64,000 nt of DNA from assembly GCA_964579575.1 (NCBI GenBank), contig CAZOGL010000004.1, positions 8,888 through 72,887 of the forward strand, in the 5' to 3' direction. Each line of letters opens with the position of its first letter. Position 1 is the stretch's first letter. Shown here in pieces: positions 1-64,000 of the stretch. The translations under genes were made by a program, and so were the position numbers. Origin of the DNA: an uncultured Eggerthellaceae bacterium. Its GTDB lineage: Bacteria > Actinomycetota > Coriobacteriia > Coriobacteriales > Eggerthellaceae. The notes under the pieces were generated by a model that worked only from the letters and a program-made list of their open reading frames with translations, did not search any database and was not told the origin of the DNA.

Positions 1-46
1 TTGAGGAACTCTCGCCTGGACTTGCGGATGTGGACCCCTCCCTTTG

Positions 47-236
47 CTACAGGAACTAACCTACAGGAACTAAGTTTGTTCGCTCGTGGCGGGTTGGGAT
101 GCTTCGAGATGCTTTGTTCTCCAAAGCGGGTCAAAATTGCCGCTAGTCGCCCTCGTGAATCGAGATGCTTTGTTCGCTGTAGTTGGCCAAAATCGTTGCT
201 TGTTGCCCTCGTGAATCGGAATTGCTGCTAGTCGAC
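47..236. repeat. Degenerate tandem repeats abutting the 3' end of the GNAT gene: 14-bp x2 at 47-74, 56-bp units at 106-161 and 162-217, partial third unit at 218-236
   Basis: Adjacent copies ctacaggaactaaC / ctacaggaactaaG. The two 56-nt units share identical ends (gagatgctttgttc ... ccctcgtgaatc) and roughly three quarters of positions. attgccgctagtcgcc (135-150) recurs as attgctgctagtcgac (221-236), which carries the GNAT stop codon on the - strand. Confidence 0.8.
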
Positions 237-692
237 GTAGTGCAGGATGTTTTCCTTGTTTAGCATGAACTCATACGAGTTGAGATCCTCTCGCGGCGTC
301 CATCCGATACTTTTCCAAAAGGCGTTGCCGCCTTCGTTGTCGTTAAACGCGACGAGCATGGCCTTGCTGATTCCCTCTTCGACAAGCGCTGCAAGACAAA
401 ATCTCACCATAGTGTGGCCGAGCCCGTGTTTGCGATATTCGGGCTCAACGCAGACGTGATAGAACGTCGCTTGCCGTCCGTCGTGTCCGCAAAGGATGCT
501 TCCGACGATCTTGTCGCCGTCAAGAGCCACCACGCTCGTCGTGGGGTTTCGCTGTAAAAAGCGCGCGACATAGGGGTAGGAGTCGTCAAGAGAGCGTACG
601 GCAAAGCCGGACATCCGCTCCCAAAGGGCGTGAACCTGCTCATAATCTTCTTTCACCATTGCGCGCAGTACGATATTGTTTTTCTTAGTCAT
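228..692 (-). CDS. GNAT family N-acetyltransferase
   Basis: 154-aa ORF with an acetyl-CoA binding core typical of GNATs (HVCVEPEYRKHGLGHTM). Confidence 0.85.
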   Translation of the reverse strand: MTKKNNIVLRAMVKEDYEQVHALWERMSGFAVRSLDDSYPYVARFLQRNPTTSVVALDGDKIVGSILCGHDGRQATFYHVCVEPEYRKHGLGHTMVRFCLAALVEEGISKAMLVAFNDNEGGNAFWKSIGWTPREDLNSYEFMLNKENILHYVD

Positions 693-864
693 GTGAGCCC
701 CTTTTTTAAATCGCGTTTTTTGTAGTACAACGTGGTCAAGGCGGGGGAGAGCTTACCGATTGAATCGCTCCCAGAATTTTGTGCTAGCCAAAGCGGCTAT
801 CTCATGGTATAAGTATACATGAGCGTGCTTAAGGGCACGCGAAATACTTTCGACGTTGTGGGAA

Positions 865-890
865 GTGGGCAGTGCCCGCTTTCTTTTGTT
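865..890 (+). terminator. Candidate intrinsic terminator/attenuator in the rimP-nusA-infB leader
   Basis: Hairpin gtgggcaGTGcccgc (6 bp, 3-nt loop) followed by tttcttttgtt, about 30 nt upstream of the rimP start. No + strand gene lies upstream for it to terminate. Confidence 0.4.
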
Positions 891-918
891 ATAGGGCTGT
901 TTTGAGAAGGGAGGACAT

Positions 919-1389
919 GTGCTGACCGCAAGCGAACAAAAGCTTTTGGATGCTCTTGAGCCCCGTTCGGTTCAGGAAGGCGTCGAGGTTATCACCGTAG
1001 AGGTCGTCGGATCAAAAAAGTCTCCCACGATTCGCGTCTACATTGACGCTGAGGGGGGCATAAGCTTCGATGAGCTTGCAAAGGCCCAAGTTTGGGTCAA
1101 CGAGATCATGGATGCTATCGATCCCTTCCCAGGCGCGTATGTGCTTGAGGTCTCTTCTCCCGGCATCGATCGTCCTTTGAGAACCCCTGCGCATTTCAAC
1201 GCATTTGCGGGGAAGACCGCAACGGTGAAAACGACGGGCAAGGTCGATGGGTCGAGCAACTTCACGGGAACCATCGTCAGGGCTGATGAGAACGTCGTCG
1301 TCCTCCGATGTGAGAACGGCGAGATTGAGATTCCTGTTGAGAAGATCAAGCGTGCCCGTTTGAAAGGCGAGATCAACTTCAAGCGCTAA
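919..1389 (+). CDS. rimP: Ribosome maturation factor RimP
   Basis: 156 aa, GTG start after GGGAGG. Conserved position directly upstream of nusA. Motif LEVSSPGIDRPL. Confidence 0.9.
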   Translation: MLTASEQKLLDALEPRSVQEGVEVITVEVVGSKKSPTIRVYIDAEGGISFDELAKAQVWVNEIMDAIDPFPGAYVLEVSSPGIDRPLRTPAHFNAFAGKTATVKTTGKVDGSSNFTGTIVRADENVVVLRCENGEIEIPVEKIKRARLKGEINFKR

Positions 1390-2716: not shown

Positions 2717-2754
2717 CGTTTAAACGGGCGAGTTAGAACGGCAGGAATTACACC

Positions 2755-3045: not shown

Positions 3046-3054
3046 GAGTGGTAT

Positions 3055-22671: not shown

Positions 22672-22813
22672 GAGCGTTTAATAAAGTGAGCGTTTAGGAT
22701 TTTTAAGCCCTTTGGCTGGCGCACGTATGGTTGGGCTTGGGCACGTTTGTCTAACTCGCGTTTGGTTAGGCCTGAACACGCTTACCTAACTCACGCGAAA
22801 TGGCTCACGCGAG
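22672..22813. repeat. Degenerate short tandem repeats filling the pta/HAD convergent gap
   Basis: gagcgttta at 22672 and 22688. gcacgtatgg / gcacgtttgt / acacgcttac at 22721, 22741 and 22776. ctaactcgcg / ctaactcacgcg at 22751 and 22786. ctcacgcgaa (22790) and ctcacgcgag (22804), the latter containing the HAD stop codon. Confidence 0.65.
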
Positions 22814-34429: not shown

Positions 34430-34467
34430 GGACTCGAAGATAAGCCCGGCGACGCAAAGCGCCGGAT

Positions 34468-43363: not shown

Positions 43364-44170
43364 GTGGCAAAGGTAACAGCAAAAGTAACAGCAAAAGTAA
43401 TAGAAGAGTCTGCCGAGCTTCTTCGCAATGAGAACCTTGGCCCTCGTTTGTATTTGATGACATTGAAGGCGCCTGGAATTTCCAGCACGGTCTTGCCTGG
43501 TCAATTCGTCCATATGAAGATTCCGGGCATGGACGACCATCCGCTCAGAAGGCCGTTTTCGGTCTATGCTGCAGATGACACGCTGGGGACCATTGATATC
43601 TTGTACCAGGTGGTCGGTTACGGAACCGATGTCATGACCGGCTTGCCTTTGGGCGCCACTTTGTCCTTAGTTGGGCCCGTCGGACATGGTTGGGTCGTGC
43701 CTGCTAGTGCAAAGAAGGTGCTTTTGGTAGGAGGGGGCGTCGGCGCGGCTCCGCTGTATATGCTTTGTGAGCATTGCGTAGCATCCGGCATAGAGACGAC
43801 GGTGGTCCTTGGAGCCGCTACCCACGGCATGCTGGTATGTCGCAAGCGTTATAGCGATCTACTCGGGAAAAATCCTCGATGTGCCACGGATGACGGAACC
43901 TACGGACATGCTGGCTTTTGTACGGGTCTCGTCGAGATGGCCTTGGATGAGGGCGGATATGATTGGGTTGCGACCTGCGGACCGACCCCTCTCATGAGGA
44001 TCGTCGCGGGCATGGCGGCCGACCATGGCGTCGCCTGCTCAGTGTCAATGGAGAAGAAGATGGCCTGCGGCATCGGTGCGTGTCTTGGCTGCATCGTCGA
44101 CACAACGGACGGCAACAAGCGTGCCTGCGTCGACGGTCCTGTGTTCCCTGCAGAGAAGGTGGTTTGGTGA
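43364..44170 (+). CDS. pyrK: Dihydroorotate dehydrogenase (class 1B) electron-transfer subunit
   Basis: FAD/NAD-binding fold (RRPFS, LVGGGVGAAP) and a C-terminal 2Fe-2S motif CGIGACLGC. The start is uncertain: GTG at 43364 or TTG at 43352 after GGGAGGA. Confidence 0.88.
   Translation: MAKVTAKVTAKVIEESAELLRNENLGPRLYLMTLKAPGISSTVLPGQFVHMKIPGMDDHPLRRPFSVYAADDTLGTIDILYQVVGYGTDVMTGLPLGATLSLVGPVGHGWVVPASAKKVLLVGGGVGAAPLYMLCEHCVASGIETTVVLGAATHGMLVCRKRYSDLLGKNPRCATDDGTYGHAGFCTGLVEMALDEGGYDWVATCGPTPLMRIVAGMAADHGVACSVSMEKKMACGIGACLGCIVDTTDGNKRACVDGPVFPAEKVVW
43367..43402 (+). repeat. In-frame 12-nt x3 tandem repeat at the pyrK 5' end
   Basis: gcaaaggtaaca / gcaaaagtaaca / gcaaaagtaata, encoding AKVT-AKVT-AKVI. 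Confidence 0.9.
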
Positions 44171-45084
44171 TGGCAGTCAATATGGCCGTCAACCTTGGTG
44201 GGTTGGCAATGAAAAACCCTGTCACCACCGGATCGGGCACGTTCGGCTCCGGCATGCAATTTGCCGATTTCCTCGACGTGTCAGAACTTGGAGCCGTAAC
44301 AACAAAGGGTGTCTCAAGCGTTCCTTGGGCCGGAGGCCCCATGCCCCGACTTGCTGAGACCCCCAGCGGCATGCTGAACGCCATCGGTCTTCAAAATCCT
44401 GGTGTCGACGTGTTTTTGGCAAAGGATCTTCCTTGGCTTGAGGAGCAAGGGGCTACCGTTATCGTCAACGTTTGCGGCCACAGCATCCCCGAATACGTTG
44501 AGTGCTTGGAGAAGCTTGGAGCATCAGATGTTCCTGATGCGTTCGAGATCAACTTGTCCTGCCCCAATGTCGATGCTGGCGGCATGGCGATCGGCACCGA
44601 TCCCGCGATGGTTGAGCAAGCGGTCAAGGCATGCCGTGCGATGACGGACAAGCCGCTCATCATCAAGCTGACGCCAAACGTTACCGATATCACCTCCATC
44701 GCCAAAGCTGCCGAGGTGGCAGGCGCTAACGCCGTCTCTCTTATCAACACCCTGCTCGGCATGGCGGTGGACATCCACAGCCGTCGCCCTCTGTTGGCTC
44801 GCGTCACCGGTGGCCTTTCCGGCCCCGCTATCAAGCCGGTCGCCCTCGCTAAGGTGTGGCAGACGAGCAAGGCTGTCTCCATCCCGATTCTTGGCATGGG
44901 TGGAATCTCTACTGGCGAGGATGCGGTGGAGTTCATGCTCGCAGGGGCCACAGCTGTTTCTGTCGGCACCGCGAATTTCGTTAACCCCCGCGCCACCATC
45001 GACGTTATCAACGGCATCCGTGACTATTGCGAGTCGCAAGGAGTTGAGGACGTCAACGAGTTGATTGGAGCATTGGAATGCTAG
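44170..45084 (+). CDS. pyrD: Dihydroorotate dehydrogenase class 1B catalytic subunit
   Basis: The ATG overlaps the pyrK stop (TGATG). The first 12 nt are duplicated (MAVN-MAVN), so the ATG at 44182 is an alternative start. Motifs NPVTTGSGTFG and GGISTGEDA. Confidence 0.93.
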   Translation: MAVNMAVNLGGLAMKNPVTTGSGTFGSGMQFADFLDVSELGAVTTKGVSSVPWAGGPMPRLAETPSGMLNAIGLQNPGVDVFLAKDLPWLEEQGATVIVNVCGHSIPEYVECLEKLGASDVPDAFEINLSCPNVDAGGMAIGTDPAMVEQAVKACRAMTDKPLIIKLTPNVTDITSIAKAAEVAGANAVSLINTLLGMAVDIHSRRPLLARVTGGLSGPAIKPVALAKVWQTSKAVSIPILGMGGISTGEDAVEFMLAGATAVSVGTANFVNPRATIDVINGIRDYCESQGVEDVNELIGALEC

Positions 45085-49316: not shown

Positions 49317-51740
49317 ATGAGGCGTCTATATTCATCAGGAGGAGAATGGACGAGGAGCCGTTTTTTTCAACGCGGAGAGCTCTTCATACGTAGCTGTCTC
49401 GCACATGGGGAGCATACAACAACAGATTCGCACATACGTCCCTCCATCCCTCCGGTTCTTCTTTGCTCGCTTGTCGCTTGGGGGGCATGTGCGGCGCTCT
49501 ATACCTTGTTTCGTGACGTGTTAACTGACCTTGTTGTTGTGTTTTTCGTCCTAGGCGTTGTGAGTGGTGTTACCTCTCTTGTTTTGGGGATAAAGACGGG
49601 AAGATTGTTGGTTATGTCGATCCTCCTCGGCCTCGCCATAGGAACCTGCTCAGCTGCAAGTGGAGCATATATCCAACGATGCTTGATGGATACCGTCAAC
49701 GATGGGTCGATTGAAGTCAAGGTGCTTGAGCTACTCGACGATGCGCGCGAATCATCCTTTTCACGTTCCACAACCGCGTATGCCTATGATGGGACGGGAA
49801 ATCGATACAAGGTTCGCGTGTATCTCGACGCGGAGGAGTCGGTTTTGCGCTATGGCCAGGTTCTCAGCATCACCGGGACCATTGCACCGATTTCTGAGCA
49901 AAGCGCGCAATCCTCTTGGACAAATGGAATCATTGGCACCGTCTCTCCTAAAACAATCGTCCCTGGGTCGAGATCGGATCTTTACGGTGGGGTGGTCTCT
50001 GTCAGAAATGCCGCCATCGACGCGATTTATGGCTTAGATGGGTCGGATGAGGCACGTGCGGTTCTTTGCGCCCTGATATGCGGCTACCGTGTTGATCTTT
50101 ACGACAGCGATGCCTACACCGATTTCAAAATCGCCGGTCTTGCACATCTTATAGCGGTGTCGGGATCGCATTTGTCGCTTGTCACAATGCTGGCAGGTTC
50201 GATACTCTCTGCCTTTCGTATCTCAAAAGGTCGAAAGACCCTGTTGCAGGTCATTCTCGTTTTTGGGTACCTCGTATTCGCGGGGATGCCGATATCGGCG
50301 ATTCGCGCGGCCCTCATGGCTAGTGCGTCCCTTATCGCATTCACGGTGCGACGGAGGGGCTCATCGCTTAACGCCCTTGGGGTGTGTTTGCTCGCGTTTA
50401 TAGCCTTCGAGCCCCAATCCGCGGTGTCGACCTCTCTCGCACTTTCCGCCTCCTCGGTACTTGGCATCCTCGTCTTTACGCAGCTATTCTTGGGGTGGAC
50501 CTCCGATGTGAAGATTCCAGCGATGAGGAAGGTTGGGGAGTCGGTCGCAACCACTATGGCCGCAAGCGTCCTATCTGCTTCTTTGTCGGCATGCCTATTC
50601 AACCAACTCCCCATCGTCTCCCCACTTGCCAACCTTGTTGCCGCGCCATTGTTTACGGCGGTATGCATGCTTGGTGTCTTGGCGTCCGTCCTAGCGGTGA
50701 TAGCGCCTCCGATAGGTACGCTGTTGTTGGGTATGGCTCTCGCGATGTGCGAGGTGATGTGCGCAACGATTCACCTCATATCGTCGTTGCCCTTCGCAAG
50801 CATCCCTTTCGTGGGCAATGTCCCCGTTTCGATCGTCATCACTGCGGTTGCGGCAACTCTTTTATGGAGCTGGTGGCCTCGACTGACCGTTTTAGCCACC
50901 AGCATACTGGTAGCAGTTCTTGTCGCTGTATCAGTCGTGTGCCACTCTGTCGGTTCAGCGCAGGCGGGTCTCCAACTTGTCGCGCTCGACGTCGGACAAG
51001 GTGATGCCATCCTTGTGCGGGATGGAGATAGCGCGATTCTTATCGATACGGGCAAGGAGGACCAAAAGCTTTTGGCAGCCTTGGCGAGGGCGGGCATCGT
51101 CCACCTTGACGCGGTGATTTTGACCCATGCTGACGCTGACCACGTCCAGTCCATGAGTGCCCTCATGGGTATGGTGCAGGTGGATTGCGTGATCATCCAC
51201 CGCGACGCTTTGAGCTGTTCTTGCTCAAATTGCGCAGATATGGTTACGAATGCGAAAAAGCTTGTAGGCGACGATTCCGTAAAGGGCGTGTCCGTTGGCG
51301 ATTCGATATCGTGCGGGCGTATCAACCTTTCCGTCATATGGCCGTATCGGTATGAGGATGAGGGGGGCAATTGCGATAGCTTGTGCCTCCTTGCCGACTT
51401 CGACGCCGATGACGACGGTTCCCGCGATGCGCGGGCCCTGTTGTGTGGGGACGCGGAGGATGCCCAGCTCGATGAGATGTATGAGCGCGGGTTGTTGTCG
51501 TCGGTCGATATCTACAAGGTGGGCCACCATGGTTCGAGAAAGGCGATTGATGACGAAACCGCTCGCAAGCTTTCGCCAAAGATTTCTCTCGTCAGCGTCG
51601 GTGCATACAACTCCTACGGACATCCTGCCTCCTCTACCTTGGAGTCATTGCGGCTTGCAGGCTCAAAGGTGTATCGCACCGACGAGTCGGGGGATATCGT
51701 GTGCACCATAGGGATACGCTCCGTTTCTGTCTCTCCTTGA
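49317..51740 (+). CDS. comEC: DNA internalization competence protein ComEC/Rec2
   Basis: 807 aa. Polytopic competence domain plus a C-terminal metallo-beta-lactamase domain (LTHADADH). The start is uncertain because I see no clear RBS. Confidence 0.88.
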   Translation: MRRLYSSGGEWTRSRFFQRGELFIRSCLAHGEHTTTDSHIRPSIPPVLLCSLVAWGACAALYTLFRDVLTDLVVVFFVLGVVSGVTSLVLGIKTGRLLVMSILLGLAIGTCSAASGAYIQRCLMDTVNDGSIEVKVLELLDDARESSFSRSTTAYAYDGTGNRYKVRVYLDAEESVLRYGQVLSITGTIAPISEQSAQSSWTNGIIGTVSPKTIVPGSRSDLYGGVVSVRNAAIDAIYGLDGSDEARAVLCALICGYRVDLYDSDAYTDFKIAGLAHLIAVSGSHLSLVTMLAGSILSAFRISKGRKTLLQVILVFGYLVFAGMPISAIRAALMASASLIAFTVRRRGSSLNALGVCLLAFIAFEPQSAVSTSLALSASSVLGILVFTQLFLGWTSDVKIPAMRKVGESVATTMAASVLSASLSACLFNQLPIVSPLANLVAAPLFTAVCMLGVLASVLAVIAPPIGTLLLGMALAMCEVMCATIHLISSLPFASIPFVGNVPVSIVITAVAATLLWSWWPRLTVLATSILVAVLVAVSVVCHSVGSAQAGLQLVALDVGQGDAILVRDGDSAILIDTGKEDQKLLAALARAGIVHLDAVILTHADADHVQSMSALMGMVQVDCVIIHRDALSCSCSNCADMVTNAKKLVGDDSVKGVSVGDSISCGRINLSVIWPYRYEDEGGNCDSLCLLADFDADDDGSRDARALLCGDAEDAQLDEMYERGLLSSVDIYKVGHHGSRKAIDDETARKLSPKISLVSVGAYNSYGHPASSTLESLRLAGSKVYRTDESGDIVCTIGIRSVSVSP

Positions 51741-51777
51741 GCCGGGGGAAGGCTCCGTTTTTGTCTCTCCCCGAGCT
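51717..51777. repeat. Near-exact tandem duplication of the last 24-27 nt of comEC
   Basis: cgctccgtttctgtctctccTTGAgcc (51717-51743) against ggctccgtttttgtctctccCCGAgct (51751-51777), about 22 of 27 identical. The stop TGA becomes CGA in the copy. Confidence 0.85.
51739..51762 (+). terminator. Weak candidate terminator after comEC
   Basis: gagcc-GGGGGAA-ggctc, then cgttttt. The hairpin is formed between the stop-codon region and the start of the duplicated copy. Confidence 0.35.
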
Positions 51778-51873: not shown

Positions 51874-52857
51874 ATGGCGACTTCAAAACCGCTTCTTCCT
51901 GCATATCTGACCGTGGGAGAGGACCAATTGAAACGAAACGCCGTTCTCGCCCGCCTTCGATCTCGGCTCGATAAAGAGGGGGCCCTTGCGTTTAACTACG
52001 ACAAGTTCGACGGGGAGACCGCAACGGGTACGGAGATCGTGCTTGCGGCAAACACCATACCCTTTGCAAGCGATATGCGCCTTGTGGAGGTAGCCCATGC
52101 CGACAAGTTGCGCAAAGCGGACAGCGAGGAGCTTGTTTCCTACCTGCAAAACCCCAGCTCCTCGACCGTTGTCATCCTCGATGCCGATAAGCTCGCCAAG
52201 AATACCCGCTTGTACAAGGCGGTCGTCGCTCTTGGTAAGTCGGCTGTCATCGAATGCGCACAAAAAAAGGAAGCCGAACTGGTCGGAATGGTCCGCGAGC
52301 TCGGCCAAGGATATGGCGTACCCTTTAGCGAGGGTGCCGCTCGGAAACTTATCGAGCTGATAGGCACGAACACGGTCGCGCTTGACGCAGAGGTCAAAAA
52401 GATTTCTTTGGCGCACCAAGGCTCAAAGGCGATCTCGGTCCGCGAGGTCGATTCTCTTGTCGTTCGCAAATCCGAGGCAAAGCCTTGGGAGTTTGTCGAT
52501 GCTTTTGCCGCACGCGATCTCAAAAGGTGTCTGATCTTGCTTGACACTATGAAATCGGTCTCAACGTTTGTATTGTTGCCGTCCTGCGCTAATCGTCTCC
52601 GTGAGCTCATATGCGTCCAATCCCTCACCAAAAGGGGAGCCTCCACCGATATCCCCAAAGAAATCGGAACACTTCGTAAGCGTTCTGTCCAAGCCTGGCA
52701 GATAAAAAATCATGCCACGTGGGCAAGAAATTGGAAGCCAGAAGAATTGCGGGGGGCATTGAAGCTCGCGCGGGAGTGTGAGCGCGCAATCAAGACTGGC
52801 TCCAACGACCGGGAGACGTTCAAAGACTGGCTTATGGCGGTCGTGCCCAAGCGCTGA
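51874..52857 (+). CDS. holA: DNA polymerase III delta subunit
   Basis: ATG at 51874 after GAGGGGGG. Conserved comEC-holA / rpsT(-) arrangement. About 327 aa. Confidence 0.85.
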   Translation: MATSKPLLPAYLTVGEDQLKRNAVLARLRSRLDKEGALAFNYDKFDGETATGTEIVLAANTIPFASDMRLVEVAHADKLRKADSEELVSYLQNPSSSTVVILDADKLAKNTRLYKAVVALGKSAVIECAQKKEAELVGMVRELGQGYGVPFSEGAARKLIELIGTNTVALDAEVKKISLAHQGSKAISVREVDSLVVRKSEAKPWEFVDAFAARDLKRCLILLDTMKSVSTFVLLPSCANRLRELICVQSLTKRGASTDIPKEIGTLRKRSVQAWQIKNHATWARNWKPEELRGALKLARECERAIKTGSNDRETFKDWLMAVVPKR

Positions 52858-52909
52858 CAACTCACCGCCGAAACGCTGGCAACCCCATAAACAATCCCTT
52901 AAAAGTAGC

Positions 52910-53008
52910 GGGCGCGGCAACGTAATAGTTGGGCCTTGTAGCGTAATCGGGTGCGACAACTTACGTTGGGTGTGACAATGTAGTAGTTGGGCCACGCAAC
53001 GTAACGCC
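52910..53008. repeat. Five tandem diverged 18-21-nt units downstream of holA
   Basis: gggcgcggcaacgtaatagtt / gggccttgtagcgtaatc / gggtgcgacaacttacgtt / gggtgtgacaatgtagtagtt / gggccacgcaacgtaacgcc. Related to the gene end aagcgcTGAcaac (52849-52861) and to aaacgctggcaac (52871-52883). Confidence 0.8.
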
Positions 53009-53030
53009 TCTTGACAATGCCTTTCTCATA

Positions 53031-53061
53031 TTAAAAATAGGGCCCTCCGAAGAGGGCCCTA
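53031..53061 (-). terminator. Intrinsic terminator of rpsT; the hairpin could also serve holA
   Basis: Perfect 10-bp stem tagggccctc-CGAA-gagggcccta. On the - strand it is followed by TTTTTAA. Confidence 0.8.
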
Positions 53062-53107
53062 TGATCAACAGTTCGTACAAGTTCTCGTACGGAGTTCGTT
53101 GAGCGAA

Positions 53108-53611
53108 TTACTCAGCTTCCTCCGAGGTCTCCTCGGCGGTCTCAGCCTTAGCAGCCTCAGCAGCAGCCTTGGCCTTGCGAGCGGCAGCCTTGGCAACAGC
53201 CTTTTCATGAGCTTTGCGACGGGCGTCCTTCTCAGCGTTGGCGACCTTGTAGGCCTCCTGCTTTGCAGCGAACTTCGCAGCCTTCTTGTTGCCCGTGGTG
53301 GCAGGCTGCTTGGCCTCAGGCTTGGTGTAGGCGGCGATGTCCTCGGCGGTAACGATGGTGTTGGCGAGAGCCATGACACCGGACTTGCGGTTAGCGGCTT
53401 GGTTCTTGTGGATGATGCCCTTGGAAGCAGCCTTGTCGAGCAGACGGCAAGCCTTGACGGCACATGCGTAAGCCTCGGCACCGTTGCCAGCGGCCACTGC
53501 CTCGCGGACGCGACGAACGGCGGTCTTCAGCTCGGCCTTGTAGGCACGATTGCGCTGACGGGACTTCTCTGCGGTGATGATACGCTTCTTCTGGCTCTTG
53601 ATATTTGCCAT
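53108..53611 (-). CDS. rpsT: 30S ribosomal protein S20 with long Ala/Lys-rich C-terminal extension
   Basis: [11 protein letters not shown] start at 53611, 6 nt after GGAGG. 167 aa, against about 87 aa for typical S20. Confidence 0.9.
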
Positions 53612-54033
53612 GATAATCCTCCAATACTTGGACGTGTGGTACATTCACGCTTCAAGCAACGGGGGAGTGGAGATGCGGCTTCGTTACTGCTGGTTAACCG
53701 ATTGCAGCATGCAAGCCCGCTTAGGGACATGCGCCTTTAGGCGGCATTCTTGCTGTGCCTATTGAAGCGGTCGGGATTTCCCAGCTTCTGGACCAATCGG
53801 TCACTCAGCAATAACGAACCCTTGTTGCGGCCACGTCCGCAGGTTGGCAAAGCCAATGTCGTTGCTGAACACGCGTCTAAACAGATTACCAAACCTTGAT
53901 GGGTATGTCACGAGGAAATTTGCGCTCGATCCAAAAAGTTTGGCCCGTCGAGTGAGGCGGCAGAGGGTCTTTACGGGGGAGTATACGCTATAATAGTTCG
54001 GCTAAAGACAATACCTATTCTTTGAGAGCGACG

Positions 54034-55845
54034 ATGATCAAGACAGCATCCCACATCCGTAATTTCAGCATCATTGCCCATATCGATCACGGCAAGTCCA
54101 CTCTTTCTGACCGCATCCTCGAGATGACGGGGACCGTGGCAAGTCGTGATATGAAGGAACAGCTGCTTGACAGCATGGACATCGAACGTGAGCGCGGCAT
54201 TACCATCAAAAGTCAAGCGGTTCGCGTCGAATACGAGGCGGACGACGGCGAGACCTACCAGCTCAACCTCATCGACACCCCGGGCCATGTGGACTTCACC
54301 TATGAGGTGAGTCGTAGCCTCGCGGCTTGTGAGGGGGCGGTTTGCGTCGTCGATGCGACCCAAGGTGTCGAGGCCCAAACCGTAGCAAACGCGATGCTCG
54401 CCATGAACAACAACCTCGAGATCATTCCCCTGATCAACAAGATCGACCTCCCAAGCGCCGAGCCTGAGCGAGTTCGTGCAGAAATCGAGGACGGCCTTGC
54501 TATCCCCGCCGATGACGCGGTGCTCGCAAGCGGCAAGACGGGGGCTGGCGTACACGACCTTCTCGAATCCGTCGTCTACAACATCCCCGCTCCTCAAGGA
54601 GACCCCGATGCTCCCCTCAAGGCGCTCATCTTCGACTCTTATTTCGATGCCTATCGCGGCGTGGTCGCGCTTATTCGCGTCGTTGACGGAAGTGTCAAGA
54701 AGGGCGACAAGATCCGCATGATGGCCACCGGCACCGAGACCCTCGTCGAGGAGGTGGGCGCCCGTCGTCCGGCCGAGGTCGCGATGCCCTCGCTAACATT
54801 CGGAGAGGTCGGATACCTCGTCACGGGTCTCAAGGACGTATCGCGATGCAAGACCGGCGATACCATCACATTGGCCGTAGACGGTGCGACCGAGGCACTT
54901 CCCGGGTATCGCGAAGCCAAACCCATGGTCTACACGGGTTTGTTCCCCATTGAATCCGACCAATACGAACCGCTCAAGGAAGCGCTCGAGAAGCTCGTCC
55001 TGAACGATCCCGCCCTTGTGTGGGAACCTGAGACCTCCATCGCGCTCGGTTTCGGATTCCGCGTCGGATTTCTTGGCCTTCTTCACATGGAGGTCGTCAA
55101 GGAGCGCCTCGAACGTGAGTTCAACCTCGACCTCCTTGCAACGGCACCAAGCGTTGAATATCACGTCTACATGCGCCGCGACTCGGATGAGTACCTCACC
55201 ATTCGCAGTCCTCAGGAGATGCCCGACGCGGGTACCTATGACCATATCGAGGAGCCGTTCCTCAAGGCAAAGATACTTGTCCCGCCCGAGTATGTGGGTG
55301 CGGTCATGGAGCTCACCTCCCAACGTCGTGGCCAGTTCATCAACATGAACTACATCTCCGCGACAACGGTTGAGCAGATTTGGGAGATACCCCTCTCCGA
55401 GCTAATCATGGACTACTTCGACAAACTCAAATCCAACACGAAGGGCTATGCGAGCCTTGATTACGAGTTCTCCTGCTACAAACCGGGCGATCTCCAAAAA
55501 CTCGACATCCTTTTGTCGGGAAAGCCCATCGACGCGCTCTCCTTCATCGTCCACAAGGACAAGGCCTATGAGCGCGGGCGCGTGCTTTGCGAGAAGCTCA
55601 AGGAGATCATCCCTCGCCAGATGTTCGAAGTTCCGATCCAAGCAGCCGTCGGAGGTCGTGTCCTTTCTCGTCAAACGGTCAAGGCGAAGCGCAAGGACGT
55701 TCTCGCGAAATGCTATGGCGGCGACATCTCCCGTAAGCGCAAGTTGCTAGAGAAGCAAAAGGCTGGCAAGAAGCGTATGAAGGCCATTGGAAACGTCGAG
55801 GTTCCCCAAGAGGCGTTTATGGCGATTTTGAAGGTCGATGATTAG
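54034..55845 (+). CDS. lepA: Elongation factor 4 (LepA)
   Basis: [29 protein letters not shown], and the LepA-specific C-terminal domain. The TTG at 54022 is an alternative start. Confidence 0.96.
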
Positions 55846-56048
55846 TGGCAAAGGACGATTACAACTGGCTCGACGATCCGTTTGACCCGGAAAAGCAAGC
55901 CCAAGACGAAGAGGAGTTGACCCGTGCGAAAAACAACGGGCTTCTTATCCTGACTCTCGTCATCATTGCTGCTATTGTCGTCGGCGTCCTCGTTTTTTTC
56001 TTTGGCAGCATATTACTCGACCTGAGCGTCAACGGCTTTGCTCGATAG
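55845..56048 (+). CDS. Hypothetical small membrane protein (67 aa)
   Basis: The GTG overlaps the lepA stop (TAGTG). Acidic N-terminus followed by one transmembrane helix (LLILTLVIIAAIVVGVLVFFFGSILL). Confidence 0.4.
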   Translation: MAKDDYNWLDDPFDPEKQAQDEEELTRAKNNGLLILTLVIIAAIVVGVLVFFFGSILLDLSVNGFAR

Positions 56049-56055: not shown

Positions 56056-57093
56056 ATGTCTCGTTTCGACCTATTTCCGTTCTTTGAGAACCATCGGGTG
56101 ATCCTTGCTCCCATGGCGGGTGTAACCGACGAGGCGATGCGTGCGCTTTGTCTCGAGGCGGGAGCGGACCTCACTTATACGGAGATGGTCTCGGCAAAAG
56201 CGCTCTCGTTTGCCAACGAGAAGACCCGCCATCTGCTCACCATGGCGCCTGGAGAGAAAATCGTCGCAGTCCAAATGTTCGGTCACGAACCTGAGGTCAT
56301 GGCGAAAGAGGCGGCCTGGATTGCCGAATCCATGGGGGAGCGGCTCGCTTACCTCGACATCAATATGGGGTGTCCCGCTCGCAAGATTGCAGGGAAGGGG
56401 GACGGATCAGCTCTCATGCGCGAACCTGCGCTTGCGGCTCGTATCGTCAGTTCGGTAGTAGCAGCTGTCGATGTTCCGGTGACGTGCAAGTTTCGTCGTG
56501 GGTTCTCCGAGGGTGACGAGACCGCCCCCGAATTTGCCCGCGTCCTCGAACAAGCGGGCGCGTCCGCCCTTGCTGTCCACGGTCGGTATGCCCAACAGAT
56601 GTATCGCGGTTGTGCCGATTGGGGCGCCATAAGGCGCGTCAAAGAAGCCGTCTCAATACCGGTGATAGGAAACGGGGACGTGCGCAGCGGATCCGATGCT
56701 GTTAACCTCATGAGGGAGACTGGGTGTGATGCCGTTATGATCGGCCGTGCGGCGCAGGGCAACCCTTGGGTGTTCTCCGAGGTGAAATCAGCTCTTGCAG
56801 GCTCTACTACGCAGGCCAAACCCACGTTCGAGGAGCGAATCGCCATGGCGCGCCGTCACGCGTCGTTGTTAGAGAAACGCGAAGGTCGCAACATCGTGCG
56901 CATGCGAAAACATGCGGCTTGGTACATGAGCGGTTTGCCAGGAGCCAGTATGGCGCGCGGCAAGTTCAACCGATGCGTGACCCTCGATGATTTCAACGCG
57001 GTCTTCGATGAGGTCCTTACCTATGCTATAACGTTCTATGACCAACACCCCGAACTTCTTAGAGGCAGAATCGAGGGAGCATCCAATGCGTAA
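56056..57093 (+). CDS. dus: tRNA-dihydrouridine synthase (DusB-like)
   Basis: Start at the ATG at 56056. Motifs LAPMAGVTD and DINMGCP. Confidence 0.9.
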   Translation: MSRFDLFPFFENHRVILAPMAGVTDEAMRALCLEAGADLTYTEMVSAKALSFANEKTRHLLTMAPGEKIVAVQMFGHEPEVMAKEAAWIAESMGERLAYLDINMGCPARKIAGKGDGSALMREPALAARIVSSVVAAVDVPVTCKFRRGFSEGDETAPEFARVLEQAGASALAVHGRYAQQMYRGCADWGAIRRVKEAVSIPVIGNGDVRSGSDAVNLMRETGCDAVMIGRAAQGNPWVFSEVKSALAGSTTQAKPTFEERIAMARRHASLLEKREGRNIVRMRKHAAWYMSGLPGASMARGKFNRCVTLDDFNAVFDEVLTYAITFYDQHPELLRGRIEGASNA

Positions 57094-57292
57094 GAAAAAC
57101 CTGATCAGTCCCGTCCTTTTTGCTGGCGCTGCCGCATTCGCATGCGCAGCGATTGCGTGCGCCCGTGGTGCCATCATCGTAGCCTCTCGCCAATACGGCA
57201 AGTCAGGTTATACGACCATCCCCTCCATTGACGCCTCCGAGGCGCAAAAGAAAATCTCAGGCGGCGCAGGAGGAGCCAACCATGCCTCATGA
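57086..57292 (+). CDS. Hypothetical small protein with signal/lipoprotein-like N-terminus (68 aa)
   Basis: ATG at 57086 after GAGGGAG. It overlaps the dus stop, and hemW overlaps its own end. N-terminus MRKKNLISPVLFAGAAAFACAAIAC. Confidence 0.35.
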   Translation: MRKKNLISPVLFAGAAAFACAAIACARGAIIVASRQYGKSGYTTIPSIDASEAQKKISGGAGGANHAS

Positions 57293-58517
57293 TCCCTACA
57301 AGGCTCTCTACCTCCACATTCCCTTTTGTGTCAAGAAGTGCGACTACTGCGATTTCACCTCATTTAGCATTCCGCGCGACCACAAGGAGATCGACGAGTA
57401 TATCGAGCAGCTTGTCATACAAATTCGCCGAAAGGCCAAAGAAGGGGAGTTGGCCCATCTCGAGACCGTCTATATCGGCGGCGGAACACCGAGCTATATC
57501 GGGCAAAGTCGCCTGAGCAGCCTTCTGTATGCCCTGAGTCTTAGCATGCGCCTTGAGCCTGATGTCGAATGTACCATGGAGGCAAATCCGGAAAGCATCA
57601 CTCCCGAGCTTATTCGTGACGTGTACGCCCTTGGAGTAAACCGCCTTTCCATCGGTGTCCAAAGTTTCGACGATGAGGTCCTCAAGATTTTGGGGCGGGC
57701 CCATGACTCCTCGAAGGCAGACGAGGCGATACGGTATGCCCTTGAGCGGTTTGACAACGTGAGTATTGATCTTATGTGCGGAGTTCCTAGTCAGACGCTG
57801 GAGTCCTTTGAGCACTCCGTTCGTCACGCCATAGAGTCGGGTGTTGCCCATGTGAGCATCTACCCTTTAACCATTGAGAAGAGAACGCCGTTTGCCAAGG
57901 CGGTTCGTCGCGGTAAATTGCCTTATCCGGACGACGATGTTCAAGCATCCTGCATGGAGCGGGCTGCGCAGCTTCTTGATGAGGCGGGTTTTCATCGTTA
58001 TGAGGTCGCAAGCTATGCCAAGCCAGGGTTTGAGTGTCGTCACAATATCTCATATTGGACGGGAAAGCCCTATCTCGGCCTTGGCACCGGCGCTACAACC
58101 ATGACCCAAAACGCCGAGCGACGCATGCGAGAGAAGGACGGCTATATCGCCGATGACCTCGACGCCGCCCAGATGTGCGCGGAAGACCTCATGCTTGGCA
58201 TGCGCATGAGCAAAGGGGTGTCCGTCGGGATGGTGAGGGAGAGCTCTGAGCTCTTGCCCGATGCTCCCTCCGTCTTCATGAAGTTGTGTAGATTGGGTCT
58301 TGTGTCGCTTATTTCCCCAGAGCATGGTATTATCGCCCAAGCGAAGAGCGATACCCTCGGTGCCATGGATGCAGACATGGTCGATGCGAATGGTAATCCA
58401 GTCGATGTGGCTATTTGTGCTGACAACGCTTCCGACGACGATCGCTTTGCACCTACCCAGCTTGGCTGGCTTTGCGGCAATGAGCTTTATGGCCGTATTT
58501 TCGAGCTTGCCCCGTAA
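57282..58517 (+). CDS. hemW: Radical SAM heme chaperone HemW / coproporphyrinogen III oxidase-like protein
   Basis: ATG at 57282 after AGGAGGAG. CVKKCDYCDF cluster motif. Conserved neighbourhood with lepA. Confidence 0.88.
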   Translation: MPHDPYKALYLHIPFCVKKCDYCDFTSFSIPRDHKEIDEYIEQLVIQIRRKAKEGELAHLETVYIGGGTPSYIGQSRLSSLLYALSLSMRLEPDVECTMEANPESITPELIRDVYALGVNRLSIGVQSFDDEVLKILGRAHDSSKADEAIRYALERFDNVSIDLMCGVPSQTLESFEHSVRHAIESGVAHVSIYPLTIEKRTPFAKAVRRGKLPYPDDDVQASCMERAAQLLDEAGFHRYEVASYAKPGFECRHNISYWTGKPYLGLGTGATTMTQNAERRMREKDGYIADDLDAAQMCAEDLMLGMRMSKGVSVGMVRESSELLPDAPSVFMKLCRLGLVSLISPEHGIIAQAKSDTLGAMDADMVDANGNPVDVAICADNASDDDRFAPTQLGWLCGNELYGRIFELAP

Positions 58518-58561: not shown

Positions 58562-59353
58562 TTGGATTCATCCGACTATCACGAACGTACTGATACGTTC
58601 ATTCGTCCGATACAGGAGAGAAATCTCGATTACGACCTGTACGACGCCCACTGCCATCTTGGATTCACCCAACAACCGGAAGCGCTTGCTGATGCGGCTG
58701 AACTCCAAGGAATTGGCGCGTTTTGTTGCACCGTTACCCCTGCAGAATATCTTGGGTTGCAGGTCCGTCTTCAATCCCATCCTAACGTCGATTTGGGTCT
58801 AGGCCTGCATCCTTGGTGGGTCGGTGAAGACGAGACGTCACTCGACCAATTCTTGGAGTTGTTGCCGGCAACTCGTTTCGTAGGGGAGATCGGGCTCGAT
58901 TTCAGCCCACGCTTTGAGACCACAGATGATATGCAGATCGAGGCAATTACCCGTATTCTGAATGCTTGTGCCGAGCAGGGAGACAAGATCATCAGCATCC
59001 ATTGCGTCCAGGCATACGACGAGCTTTTGGGTATATTGGACTCAACGGGAGTTTGCGATTCTTGCCAAGTGATCATCCATTGGTTCAGCGGCACGAGCGA
59101 CCAACTCATGTATGCCTATCGGATCGGCTGTTGCTTCTCCGTCGGACCCCGTATGCTCTCCACCAAGCGCGGGCGCGCCTATGTGAGGCAAATCCCCCGT
59201 GAGCGTATCTTCCTTGAAACTGATGCCCCCTTGGTTGACGCCAAGGTAGAAAACTTCCTTCCGGTTCCCTTTGATTTTGAGGAATGGCGAGAGCTGCTCG
59301 AAGAGGCGAACCGCCTTCTTGAGGCCGAGCCGACAAGCGAGCAGAAAAGCTAG
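58562..59353 (+). CDS. TatD family metal-dependent hydrolase
   Basis: DAHCHL N-terminal motif. The TTG at 58562, 5 nt after AAGGAG, is an inferred start. The track ORF starts at 58532. Confidence 0.78.
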   Translation: MDSSDYHERTDTFIRPIQERNLDYDLYDAHCHLGFTQQPEALADAAELQGIGAFCCTVTPAEYLGLQVRLQSHPNVDLGLGLHPWWVGEDETSLDQFLELLPATRFVGEIGLDFSPRFETTDDMQIEAITRILNACAEQGDKIISIHCVQAYDELLGILDSTGVCDSCQVIIHWFSGTSDQLMYAYRIGCCFSVGPRMLSTKRGRAYVRQIPRERIFLETDAPLVDAKVENFLPVPFDFEEWRELLEEANRLLEAEPTSEQKS

Positions 59354-59377
59354 CCGACAAACGAGACGTTTACGCAA
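59329..59377. repeat. 24-nt tandem duplication of the tatD-family gene 3' end
   Basis: gccgacaagcgagcagaaaagcTA (59329-59352; ends in the first two bases of the TAG stop) followed by gccgacaaacgagacgtttacgca (59353-59376), about 15 of 24 identical with the first 13 nearly perfect. Confidence 0.7.
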
Positions 59378-59478: not shown

Positions 59479-60408
59479 ATGACGATTTACCAAGACGTTA
59501 CCGAGATTATTGGCAATACCCCTCTTGTCGAGTTGGGAAACTTCGAGAAGAACCACGGTTTAAACGCAAGAATCGTAGGCAAGTTTGAGCGAGTGAACCC
59601 TACCGGCTCAATCAAGGACCGCACCGCCCTCGCTATGCTCGATGATGCGGAGAGTCGGGGATTGCTCGACCATGACACGGTCATCATTGAGCCCACAAGC
59701 GGAAACACCGGCGTCGGCCTCGCTGCCATCGCTGCCGCTCGTGGGTATCGTCTCATCATCACGATGCCTGAGACCATGAGCATCGAGCGACGCAATCTTA
59801 TGGCCGCCTATGGTGCCGAGCTTGTTCTCACCGATGGCGCAAAGGGTATGGCGGGTGCGATAGCCAAGGCCGAGGAACTGTGCTCAACTTTCGAGAAGGC
59901 TTTTATACCCGGCCAATTCGAAAATCCTTCCAATCCTGCGATTCATGAGCGCACCACCGGACCCGAAATCTGGGAGCAGACCGACGGCAAGGTCGACATG
60001 GTCATCGCTGGTGTCGGTACGGGTGGGACCATCACCGGAATCAGCCGGTTTCTCAAGGCTCAAAACCCCGCTATCAAGGTCATAGCAGTCGAGCCCGCTG
60101 GGTCTCCCGTGTTATCCGGAGGAGCGGCTGGCAAACACGACCTTCAAGGCATCGGTGCCGGGTTTGTGCCGAAAGCTCTCGACACGGATTCCTACGATGA
60201 GGTTATCACCATCGAGGACGAGCAGGCGTACGCCGCCGGCCGCGAGCTTGCCGCCCACGAAGGCTTGCTTGTCGGGATCACTTCGGGCGCCGCCGTAGCT
60301 GCTGCCGAGATACTTGCAAAGCGACCGGAAAACGAAGGTAAGCTTATCGTTTGCATCTTGCCTGACACCGGCGAGCGTTACCTTTCAACCGCCATGTTCG
60401 ATTTCTAA
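59479..60408 (+). CDS. cysK: Cysteine synthase A (O-acetylserine sulfhydrylase)
   Basis: [17 protein letters not shown] start. PLP lysine motif NPTGSIKDR. Motif GTGGTITG. Confidence 0.94.
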
Positions 60409-60453
60409 AGAATTTTTTTGTAAGGGAATTTTCGGATTCTAAGGGAATTTCGC
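60400..60453. repeat. Three tandem diverged 14-20-nt units starting with the cysK stop codon
   Basis: gatttcTAAagaattttttt / gtaagggaattttc / ggattctaagggaatttcgc. Confidence 0.7.
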
Positions 60454-60632
60454 GAATATCTGCAGGGATACCGGCTCGACGTATGCCCGAGAGGACGTTG
60501 ATCCAGGACTGTTGGTCACTCGTGCACCCTCGCCTAAACGAAAAAGTCTGCTTCGTTCGAAAAATCAAGACCGCTTCATCCAAACAACCAAACCGTCCTT
60601 TCACGAACTTTCTGTGTGACTTTCGATAAGGA

Positions 60633-61719: not shown

Positions 61720-61767
61720 CACCGCGCTCATCTCGCGGAGATAGAGGAAGAAGGGTAACGAACTAGC

Positions 61768-62892
61768 ATGGCTAAGGACCTGTATGAGGTTATCGGCGTA
61801 TCGCGTGATGCGACCGAGGAAGAGATCAAGAAGGCGTTTCGCAAGAAGGCAAGACAGCTCCATCCTGACGTCAACAAAGCCCCTGACGCTGAGAATCAGT
61901 TCAAAGAGCTGAACGAGGCCTACGACGTTCTCTCTGACAGGAACAAACGCGCACAATACGATCGCTTCGGCACCATTCCTGGTGCTGCCGGTGGCGCGGG
62001 CGGCCCTGGCTATGTTGACATGGAGGACATCTTCGGCGGAATGGGGGATATCTTCAGCAGCTTCTTCGGAGGCGGCGCTGGTGGGGGCGGGCGTCGTCCC
62101 CGTCGTGAGGGTCGCGACATGGGCATCGGATTGCGCGTCACGCTCGAGGAGGTCGCAACTGGCACGAAGAAAGAAATCGTCTACGATCGCCTCGCGCCCT
62201 GCGATACGTGTCACGGTACCGGCCTCGGTGAAGGTGGTCGCCAGGTCACCTGCACTGAGTGCAACGGCAAAGGCCGCGTCGTCACCGTTCAGCAAACCAT
62301 CCTTGGCAACATGCAGTCCGCTCAAACCTGTTCACGATGCAACGGCACCGGACAGATGATCGAGAATCCCTGCCCCGATTGCGAAGGTCAGGGACGTGCG
62401 CCCGATCGCCAACGTCTGAGCGTGGACGTACCTGCAGGAATCCACGACCAACAACAGGTACGCATTCCCCGCTATGGCGAGGCCGGTCTCAACGGCGCTG
62501 AACCGGGCGACTTGCTCGTAACCATCCGCATTTTGCCCCATGACGTCTTCCAACGCGATGGAGACAATCTGCACATGGAGGCAAAGATCTCCATGATCCA
62601 AGCCGCCCTCGGTGCGCAGATCGAGGTTGACGGCATCCTTCCTGACGAGAAGGTCGCGGTGCGCATCCCCGACGGATGCCAAAACGACCAGGTCATTCGC
62701 GTTCGTAACTACGGTATGCCGAAGGCCCGTTCCGACGTTCGTGGCGATCTGTATGTCCATATTACGGTCATCATCCCGAAAAAACTCACCGACCATCAAC
62801 GCGAACTGCTCGAACAACTTGCCGATGATATGGGCGAGGAGGTCGCCGGTGAGCGTTCCACGTGGGAAAAGCTCAAGGATGCCTTCAAATAA
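61768..62892 (+). CDS. dnaJ: Molecular chaperone DnaJ
   Basis: J domain with HPD, G/F-rich linker, four CxxCxGxG zinc motifs. Confidence 0.96.
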
Positions 62893-62991
62893 GCAGTTAC
62901 ACGAACTTTAAGCTTTAGTTCCTTGCGAGCATGCATGTATGTATGTCGGTTTTGTAAGGTTGTCGATCCCATAAGCAAATGAGGTTGTTCT

Positions 62992-63780
62992 TTGTCGCTT
63001 CAGCATTTCTACCTTGATGAACAGGTCATTGCAAAGGAGGCCGATACCTCCTTCCGCCTTTGCCTTGGTAACGACGATTTGAAACACGTCCGCGTCCTGC
63101 GCATGGGACCGGGCGAGCATATTGCTGTCGTAGACGGTGAGAAGGACTATTTCGAGCTTGAAATTGATCGATTTGATGACGAGGGCTTGTATGTCCATAT
63201 CGCACGCCATCTCAAAGCCCCTCAAAAGCGACCCCGGGTCATCCTTCTCCAAGGGCTCGCAAAGGGCGACAAGATGGATGAGGTCATCCGCCACGCCACC
63301 GAGCTTGGCGTATCTGAGTTCATTCCTTTGGAGTGCGCTCGAAGCGTGATGAGGCTTGATGCGAAAAAGGCCCCGAAGAAACTGGAGCGTTGGAGAGCTA
63401 TCGCGAAGAGTGCCGCTATGCAATCTGGCCAGCCCTTCATACCTGAGGTCAGAGAGCCGTTAAAGCCAAAAGCCGCCGCTGCGGCCCTTGCCGATTGCAC
63501 GGCCGTATGCGTCTGTTGGGAGGAAGCTCCCTCCACAAAAAAGCTTGGAGACGCAATCCGTGCGGGCCTTATAGCCCATGGCCAAGCAAGGGATGAGGCA
63601 ATCGTCGCCCTCATCGTCGGCCCAGAAGGCGGCCTCACCGATACGGAGGTCCAAACGTTTTTGGAAACCTCGGAATGCGCGGCGCTCGTGTCCCTGGGAT
63701 CTAGCATCCTTCGCACTGAGACAGCCGGTATCGTTGCGCCCGCCTTGGCACTCTACGAACTCGGGTGTCTCGGTGGCTAA
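62992..63780 (+). CDS. rsmE: 16S rRNA (uracil1498-N3)-methyltransferase
   Basis: 262 aa, TTG start. C-terminal SPOUT motif GPEGGLT ... LGSSILRTETA. Confidence 0.85.
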   Translation: MSLQHFYLDEQVIAKEADTSFRLCLGNDDLKHVRVLRMGPGEHIAVVDGEKDYFELEIDRFDDEGLYVHIARHLKAPQKRPRVILLQGLAKGDKMDEVIRHATELGVSEFIPLECARSVMRLDAKKAPKKLERWRAIAKSAAMQSGQPFIPEVREPLKPKAAAAALADCTAVCVCWEEAPSTKKLGDAIRAGLIAHGQARDEAIVALIVGPEGGLTDTEVQTFLETSECAALVSLGSSILRTETAGIVAPALALYELGCLGG

Positions 63781-63781
63781 G

Positions 63782-64000
63782 ATGTTGTTCTCGGTCGTCA
63801 ACCTAGGGTGCAAGGTCAACAGGGTAGAAAGCGATAGCGTAGCCGCAACGCTGTTGGGACTTGGATGGAGCGAGGCGCCTCTCGAGGCATCGGACCTTGT
63901 TGTAATCAACACCTGTACGGTGACCGGCGAGGCGGAAAAAAAGACGCGCAAGACGGTACGCCACGCAATACGCATGAACGCGATAGCACCTATCGTCGTA
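63782..64000 (+). CDS. mtaB: Radical SAM methylthiotransferase, MiaB/MtaB family (5' partial, runs off the window)
   Basis: N-terminal UPF0004 domain: NLGCKVNRVESD ... VVINTCTVTGEAEKK. Its position after rsmE matches the dnaJ-rsmE-mtaB order seen in Gram-positives. Confidence 0.75.
   Translation, partial: MLFSVVNLGCKVNRVESDSVAATLLGLGWSEAPLEASDLVVINTCTVTGEAEKKTRKTVRHAIRMNAIAPIVV

Follow-up and report, generated by a model that had tools for sequence, protein, structure and literature searches.

Microhomology-mediated tandem duplication (MTD) is described as universal in bacteria and other microbes, and tandem repeats are reported to originate mainly from it (bioRxiv 10.64898/2026.02.28.708716; PMC8639346). 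Here we examined intergenic tandem arrays, several of which contain copies of the adjoining gene's own 3′ end with its stop codon, in 64,000 nt of DNA from an uncultured Eggerthellaceae bacterium (GenBank assembly GCA_964579575.1, contig CAZOGL010000004.1, positions 8,888 to 72,887; this whole stretch is hereafter the window, and positions refer to it). The arrays resemble MTD or slippage repeats in that their copies lie head to tail and are specific to each locus, the changes are reversible and give copy-number variants among strains, and a twofold duplication can grow into a multi-copy array. As to short homology, 2 nt is seen at a 9-nt event and 20 nt at a 74-nt event, and none at a perfect 14-nt duplication. 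They differ from the MTD reports in being enriched in one genus and in being mostly old and decayed, and many of their units span a stop codon, whereas the MTD preprint (bioRxiv 10.64898/2026.02.28.708716) is silent on stop codons and intergenic DNA.

The arrays are also comparable to bacterial variable-number tandem repeats (VNTRs) or minisatellites, including the interspersed repetitive units of mycobacteria (MIRUs), which likewise consist of intergenic units of tens of nucleotides with copy numbers that vary among strains and of which the MIRUs also abut the start and stop codons of neighboring genes (PMC3635867; PMC12548453). The window's arrays belong with the VNTR-like loci in both respects, as they show head-to-tail, locus-specific units above chance together with copy-number variation among strains. 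MIRUs, however, form one dispersed and apparently mobile family that inserts at start codons (PMC12548453), whereas the units here are locally derived, not dispersed, and unrelated between loci. As a reading of the window made from its letters alone (hereafter the sequence-only reading) had stated, each locus has a unit sequence of its own: a blastn-short search of all arrays against the window and the 8.5 kb upstream returned no dispersed copies, only two 13-nt chance matches (E about 0.03). The arrays are therefore unlike the many-copy dispersed families of repetitive extragenic palindromes (REP), bacterial interspersed mosaic elements (BIME), and miniature inverted-repeat transposable elements (MITE), and they are unlike CRISPR in that the units abut without spacers, copies are 51–94% identical, and each locus is different.

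The closest analogy in outcome comes from mitochondria, where intergenic gaps derive from duplicated ends of adjacent genes under the tandem duplication-random loss model (PMC5370444). In both cases the spacers of a compact genome are decayed copies of a flanking gene, although the mitochondrial case is organellar, involves tRNA- or gene-scale units, and affects gene order, whereas the units here are bacterial, 9–74 nt long, and anchored at the stops of protein genes. Integrative elements also leave direct repeats of gene 3′ ends (attL and attR at the ends of tRNA, tmRNA, and protein genes), and these repeats have a fixed length, with a kilobase-scale, integrase-bearing island between the copies. 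The arrays share with them a copy of a gene 3′ end downstream of an intact gene, but they are contiguous, of many lengths, and multi-copy, with no intervening element. In our full-text literature searches, no paper turned up that describes tail duplications across the stop as a systematic feature of bacteria, as the sequence-only reading had supposed; the kind of event, tandem duplication, is known, and the stop-anchored, genus-enriched pattern appears to be undescribed.

Array excess, recovery, and variation among relatives

Using Tandem Repeats Finder (TRF) with relaxed parameters, we detected 11 intergenic arrays in the window at a score of at least 50 and six at a score of at least 75, while 100 dinucleotide shuffles of the same intergenic regions yielded 0.79 ± 0.83 and 0.04 arrays, respectively (the threshold of at least 50 was chosen; at a score of 30 the calls were mostly noise, with 57 “arrays” within coding DNA). 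Similarly, in alignments of each gene's final 30 nt with its own downstream DNA, scores were overall better than in the permuted control, in which the downstream regions of other genes were used (Mann-Whitney p from 8e-5 to 3e-3). This signal was carried by a minority, with about 8–10 of the 34 genes that have at least 40 nt downstream standing out. Tails with Z > 2 made up 24% of those in the window and 7% of 650 control tails (74 loci from other genomes), and array density at a score of at least 75 was 1.0 per kb of intergenic DNA in the window, 0.45 in a sister species, 0.23 elsewhere in the Eggerthellaceae, and 0.34 in unrelated bacteria; both comparisons set a single 64-kb window against 20-kb loci whose genes were called with our own crude caller. 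A strict ungapped statistic for adjacent copies placed 11% of stops above the coding 95th percentile, which is the rate of intergenic positions generally, and this equality indicates that the statistic is insensitive to short, degenerate, multi-copy units.

The arrays are thus real and above chance, although their frequency had been overstated. The sequence-only reading held that the non-coding DNA behind a gene usually begins with diverged copies of that gene's tail; tail-derived intergenic DNA does exist in the window, but “usually” is wrong. Among the 13 loci it listed, eight are solid, those at holA and rpsT are weak, and those at ackA, queC, and hemW are at chance level, with own-downstream Z values (−0.8, −0.2, and 1.0, respectively) not above the permuted control. 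The locus ascribed to rsmB is a solid array, but it is not copied from the rsmB tail. In all, three to five of the 13 loci fail to stand up.

Relatives for comparison were gathered by protein searches and contig look-ups. They comprise independent same-species assemblies at 98.3–98.8% nucleotide identity (L081, L099, L100, L102–L105, and L107), loci of the sister species at about 88% nucleotide identity (L001, L082, L083, L109, and L110), and loci of a third species (L084 and L101; amino acid identity 77% for fmt and 76% for holA). In a genome scan with HemW, which placed the window in Eggerthellaceae (Coriobacteriia), the nearest species representative was GCA_963643505.1 (Eggerthellaceae bacterium) at 90% identity, with every other at 64% or less, and a scan of JGI metagenomes with holA gave no match above 55% identity.

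The same arrays were recovered in metagenome assemblies that differ in sample and pipeline (ENA ERZ27279219, -229, -230, -231, and -232; Logan SRR11880815), and the independent assemblies of the species represent seven samples, five of which cover the arrays at 47-241. These assemblies differ from the window by 1.2–1.7% single-nucleotide polymorphisms (SNPs; hundreds), and almost no sequence differences fall inside the arrays; given overall identities of 98.3–98.8%, they are not one and the same sequence. It is therefore exceedingly improbable, in view of both this recovery and the shuffle test, that the arrays are chance resemblances or artefacts of assembly or sequence generation, the last of which the sequence-only reading had raised. 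That explanation is refuted for the strong loci and stands only for ackA, queC, and hemW, which do no better than permuted controls; the match of only 51% in the holA array also speaks for it.

Copy number varies both within the species and between related species. Over about 105 kb of pairwise alignment between conspecifics, with about 1,640 SNPs, we found six indels of at least 9 nt (9, 23, 44, 52, 56, and 74 nt), and all of them were gains or losses of tandem units, with no other seen. The 23-nt change, the sole indel in 21 kb, lies in the convergent spacer between rsmB and a hypothetical gene, where the window has two copies and L081 has one; the L081 copy is chimeric, its left part corresponding to copy 1 and its right part to copy 2, which points to deletion between the copies. 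The 9-nt change is a perfect duplication in L099 with 2-nt microhomology, at the end of a small open reading frame (ORF). Among L102–L105, a 20-nt direct repeat flanks the 74-nt unit where the allele has one copy of it, the 56- and 52-nt changes are units of an array of about 55-nt units downstream of uvrD, and the 44-nt change is a perfect unit in a divergent spacer. As read from these alignments, the indel pattern bears the hallmark of tandem duplication and contraction mediated by short homology, a process that is still ongoing.

Between species, the 3′ spacers differ in length. The spacer between the ABC exporter gene and dnaG measures 242 nt in the window, 143 nt in the sister species, and 61 nt in the third species; the convergent spacer between rsmB and the hypothetical gene measures 205, 125, and 74 nt, respectively (from gene calls); and that between holA and rpsT measures 250, 155, and 156 nt. 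With the third species as outgroup, these lengths indicate that spacers grew in the window's lineage. Specific to this lineage are the second 34-nt copy at comEC, a 21-nt insertion downstream of rpsT, and a 24-nt insertion at the end of the tatD-like gene (relative to L001), all of them lacking in the sister species. The cysK, holA, and HAD tails bear arrays in the window and the sister species alike, with different units or copy numbers. The sister HAD tail carries its own 19-nt array of 3.4 copies, and these copies read TGA and GAGCTG, whereas TAA and GAATTG now stand in the sister gene's own tail, so that the copies are fossils of the ancestral tail. At the holA site the sister species has a different array of seven 12-nt copies in the same place, and its cysK array is longer, with several copies carrying TGA like the sister gene's own stop; the distal ends of the two cysK arrays are homologous. 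Divergent spacers, which are flanked by 5′ ends only, are conserved in length between the window and the sister species (307 vs. 306 nt and 389 vs. 406 nt) and 83–89% identical; the 3′ spacers are only 45–50% identical. Over comparable regions we counted nine intergenic arrays in the window, four in the sister species, and one in the third species. Compared with relatives, this Eggerthellaceae genus shows tandem duplication more clearly, the window's species most clearly of all.

Origin of the arrays and their position at stop codons

We consider it likely that the arrays are products of ordinary local tandem duplication and contraction by short homology, kept where they are neutral, and not a new functional element. 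Units of 9–74 nt would arise by replication slippage or by unequal exchange between short direct repeats, and the arrays would then expand, contract, and decay by point mutation. A duplication that runs from inside a gene to its stop or beyond would leave the first copy and the protein intact and make the second copy new 3′ non-coding DNA, while a duplication wholly inside the gene would alter the protein; duplications would thus persist only where they are harmless. Because the stretch from the stop boundary to the terminator is the main unconstrained one in a compact genome, gene tails would be copied repeatedly. Occasional tolerated outcomes include loss of the first stop with a gain of a few residues, as at the tatD-like gene, or an in-frame N-terminal unit, as at pyrK.

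The SNPs within the arrays are consistent with near-neutral evolution. They number 12, against 14.6 expected from the local third-codon-position rate (0.82×, not significant), while SNP density relative to this rate is 0.26× in 5′ regions (p = 8e-12) and 0.63× in other intergenic DNA. A pooled comparison had hinted at constraint on the arrays (1.3% vs. 3.7%), but the effect disappeared with local rates, as the low pooled density was due to mosaic divergence (e.g., 0/328 third-position differences in holA). At third positions, the window and the sister species have an identity of 0.73; copies with 70–90% identity therefore fit an origin at about the time of the species split or later, and need no error-prone copying. 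We rejected error-prone copying, or copying like that of diversity-generating retroelements, on the grounds of this value and because the arrays are not hypervariable within the species, and transposon target-site duplications because unit lengths range from 9 to 74 nt. The first of the explanations offered by the sequence-only reading, duplication that survives where selection is relaxed, accordingly agrees with the copy-number variation, the lineage-specific spacer growth, and the near-neutral SNPs; its additional clause, that the duplications possibly occur at sites where transcription or translation terminates, is neither needed nor shown.

Several points weigh against ordinary duplication kept by neutrality. 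Seven of the 11 arrays at a score of at least 50 touch a stop codon, whereas 2.6–3.4 would be expected under uniform neutral placement (P = 0.004–0.02), so that the anchoring exceeds the simplest neutral-placement model by about 2.3-fold, and only 12–20% of intergenic arrays touch a stop in other genomes. All three sister arrays in the compared region (HAD, holA, and cysK) lie at loci where the window also has arrays, which could reflect either inheritance with turnover or hot spots. Microhomology is legible for two recent events only; the perfect 14-nt duplication at 47-73 shows none, and older arrays are too decayed for their founding homology to be read. The array SNP test has only 12 events and is compatible with weak selection, and the lineage enrichment (1.0 vs. 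0.23–0.34 arrays per kb; 24% vs. 7% of tails) comes from crude gene calls and one window.

Constraint on much of the remaining intergenic DNA (0.26–0.63×) makes the neutral target smaller and could explain the modest excess of anchoring, and a real bias toward terminator-proximal sites seems to us improbable. Such a bias would follow if termination created a mutational hot spot, with hairpins or stalled transcription or translation complexes provoking template switching, so that duplications arise preferentially at stops. This would suit the 2.3-fold anchoring, which is above that in other genomes, the arrays that lie between stop codon and terminator hairpin at rpsT and the hypothetical gene, the comEC duplication junction, where a small hairpin forms with a T run behind it, and the gene tails that bear arrays in two species. 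Segregating changes in copy number, however, are also found elsewhere: the 44-nt change in a divergent 5′ spacer, the 56- and 52-nt changes 32 nt or more beyond a stop, and the 74-nt change close to a promoter. Arrays exist outside 3′ ends as well, in the divergent bacA/uvrD spacer just beyond the window and as in-frame units at the starts of pyrK and pyrD; the window holds no more terminator-like sites than chance allows (23 vs. 19), and selective filtering alone predicts much of the anchoring. A termination-linked hot spot is thus an unlikely source of the arrays. We are similarly doubtful of a genus-level variant, in which gene-end template switching, perhaps together with a lineage-specific defect in flap processing or in repeat-suppressing repair, would make the anchoring mutational; if it were true, stop regions would be birthplaces of new 3′ untranslated region (UTR) DNA and C-terminal extensions.

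Selection for 3′ UTR elements, whether as spacers or insulators between convergent genes, multi-frame backup stops, Rho-loading tracts, or protein-binding sites, also deserves consideration, as the sequence-only reading had listed a 3′ UTR function among its explanations. With units of 14, 19, 23, 34, and 35 nt, stop triplets fall in each of the three frames, and intergenic DNA, when pooled, has a lower SNP density than third positions. On the mRNA strand, some arrays are rich in C, poor in G, and predicted to lack structure (34468-34525, minus strand, z = +1.8; L001 6068-6163), which is the composition expected of Rho-loading sites; the former is thus rut-like, and the sister holA array is alike. 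Yet the array SNPs do not depart from the local synonymous-like rate (0.82×), the sister species lacks the arrays or has very different ones, copy number is variable within the species, no motif is common across loci, and copies within arrays have drifted to 51–90% identity. Unlike structured 3′ UTR RNAs or known non-coding RNAs, none of the eight arrays that were folded did better than shuffles (z from −0.9 to +1.8), and no array had an Rfam match at the gathering score. Lacking excess folding, conservation in the sister species, and an Rfam match, a 3′ UTR function finds no support as the explanation of the arrays, and we think it quite unlikely that they were selected as such elements. Ordinary duplication kept where neutral, which we prefer, does not yet account for two features, namely the enrichment in this lineage and the surplus of arrays anchored at stops.

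The arrays reveal no new molecular machine, but they are informative about the evolution of 3′ non-coding DNA and protein termini in one lineage. They offer a datable picture of how non-coding DNA may grow in a compact bacterial genome, in which 3′ spacers expand two- to four-fold between close species through copying of gene tails across the stop, the copies record ancestral C-terminal codons and stop codons, and protein ends are lengthened now and then (eight codons at the tatD C-terminus and eight at the pyrK N-terminus). The rates of tandem duplication and their restraints could be studied in this genus as a natural system, and the arrays are ready-made VNTR markers for strain typing. For annotators and for those who evaluate sequence models, they are a caution that locally self-copying intergenic DNA can be genuine.

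Individual arrays and other features of the window

The window has a GC content of 56% and a Firmicute-like order of housekeeping genes (nusA-infB, the pyr operon, comEC-holA-rpsT-lepA-hemW, and hrcA-dnaJ). The gene set consists of 61 genes from a self-trained codon model, ten of which were confirmed by Pfam. At the left end, the youngest stop-spanning event is a perfect 13/14-nt tandem duplication at 47-73 (plus strand; two copies of CTACAGGAACTAA, 100% identity, spacing 14), which was not listed separately by the sequence-only reading and is found in five independent assemblies. It holds the TAA stop (57-59) of a plus-strand MarR-like gene that runs off the window and was identified via conspecific loci. 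The neighboring GNAT array (104-242, minus strand) has a 56-nt unit in two full copies and a partial third, which is the tail of the GNAT gene (stop at 228-230); positions 135-157, 191-213, and 220-242 are in register, the full units are 79% identical to each other and the tail copy is 83% identical, and the TRF score is 146–170. The GNAT spacer is 168 nt long in the window and 118 nt in the sister species.

Behind the HAD hydrolase gene (22711-22810, minus strand), a 35-nt unit occurs twice together with shorter copies of the tail ending in CTCGCGTGA, next to the stop (22805-22807). The ABC exporter array (29331-29410, plus strand) has about six copies of the 14-nt unit GGTCCTAAAGTTTT, the first of which includes the last 5 nt of the exporter gene and its TAA stop (29336-29338); it is identical in the conspecific L081, while the sister species lacks the array and has a single GGTCCTAAGGACG. 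The array ascribed to rsmB (34468-34520, with no strand assigned) has a 23-nt unit in two copies of 90–94% identity and is the one with polymorphic copy number described above. It lies 40 nt past the rsmB stop and beyond the hairpin at 34445-34466, and thus sits in the presumed 3′ UTR of the convergent minus-strand hypothetical gene. That gene, which encodes a TPR-like protein, has its own array at 34541-34656 (minus strand) with four copies of a 23–35-nt unit CTTAGAGGCGCTCGACCTGTTCG, of which 34634-34656 is the real gene tail with its stop; copies are 74–87% identical, the Smith-Waterman (SW) Z is 5.2, the sister species has one extra diverged copy, and none is clear in the third species.

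The in-frame repeats reported at the 5′ ends of pyrK and pyrD are real. In pyrK (43367-43402, plus strand), a 12-nt unit occurs three times and encodes AKVT-AKVT-AKVI at the N-terminus, whereas the third species has a single AKVI unit, two units fewer; in pyrD the 12-nt repeat lies at 44170-44192. The comEC tail bears a 34-nt duplication (51711-51776, plus strand) that includes the TGA stop (51738-51740), with copies 81–84% identical and an SW Z of 8.9. The weak holA array (52858-53021, plus strand) consists of very degenerate units of about 19 nt (GACAAC/GGCAACGTAATAGTTGGGCC) that extend from the holA stop to a shared terminator hairpin; TRF reports it at 52904-53004 with a score of 68 at 51% matches, and one 37-nt pair is 76% identical. 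Also weak are the short repeats (AGTTCGT...) at 53063-53107 (minus strand), between the rpsT stop (53108-53110) and the terminator hairpin (53037-53062).

At the tatD-like gene (59328-59365, plus strand), three copies of a 12-nt unit with 79–93% identity lie across the stop (59351-59353), and the ORF is eight codons longer than in the sister species because the stop of the first copy was lost. The cysK array (60394-60453, plus strand) has about three copies of a 12–19-nt unit ATTTCTAAGGGA from the gene tail and its TAA stop (60406-60408), and a further array downstream of cysK (60544-60595, plus strand; 23-nt unit, 2.3 copies, TRF score 64) touches no stop. The hairpins at 34445-34466 and 53037-53062 are G+C-rich and lie in convergent spacers, each with the stop of one gene adjoining and that of the other 45–170 nt away; they probably act as bidirectional terminators, and the position of the second is conserved across all three species.

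More intergenic arrays with polymorphic copy number were observed in the 8.5 kb to the left of the window, as represented in relatives (L102 1-8500, L103, L105, and L109). These include an array of 74-nt units downstream of bacA, 44-nt units in the divergent bacA/uvrD spacer (2.8 vs. 1.8 copies), and units of about 55 nt downstream of uvrD (spacer of 265 vs. 373 nt). In the sister species, a 28-nt array of 2.9 copies (90% identity) starts at the bacA stop.

Several features of the window concern the proteins themselves. Ribosomal protein S20 (53108-53644, minus strand) is extended at its C-terminus by about 80 aa with much Ala, Lys, and Glu; of its 178 residues, only 13–94 fall within the Pfam S20 domain, conservation of the extension is seen in the sister species and the third species alike, and the 3′ part of the gene shows TRF periodicities of 9, 12, and 21 nt. 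Two small plus-strand ORFs lie in the gap between lepA and a Dus-like gene (55845-56048, 67 aa) and in that between the Dus-like gene and hemW (57086-57292, 68 aa). Both are cleanly missing in the sister species (gaps of about 205 nt), and the start of each resembles the ribosome-binding site and start of its downstream gene. The former has a clear hydrophobic segment and is present in the third species, and the latter carries the 9-nt in-frame duplication polymorphism in L099. HemW (57282-58517, plus strand) contains an insertion of about 41 aa near its C-terminus (residues ~345–385) that is common to the three species of the genus and not found in other Eggerthellaceae (411 vs. about 370 aa). 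A low-complexity linker of the ABC exporter, rich in Asp, Lys, and Asn, shows a 15-aa difference when the window (28563-28583, plus strand) is compared with the sister species (L082 6563-6628) and is not obviously a tandem duplication.

Finally, divergence between conspecific strains is strongly mosaic. Between the window and L099, holA (51874-52857) shows none of 328 third positions changed and the Dus-like gene (56098-57093) shows 44 of 334 (13%), a pattern in the alignments that suggests frequent homologous recombination within the species.

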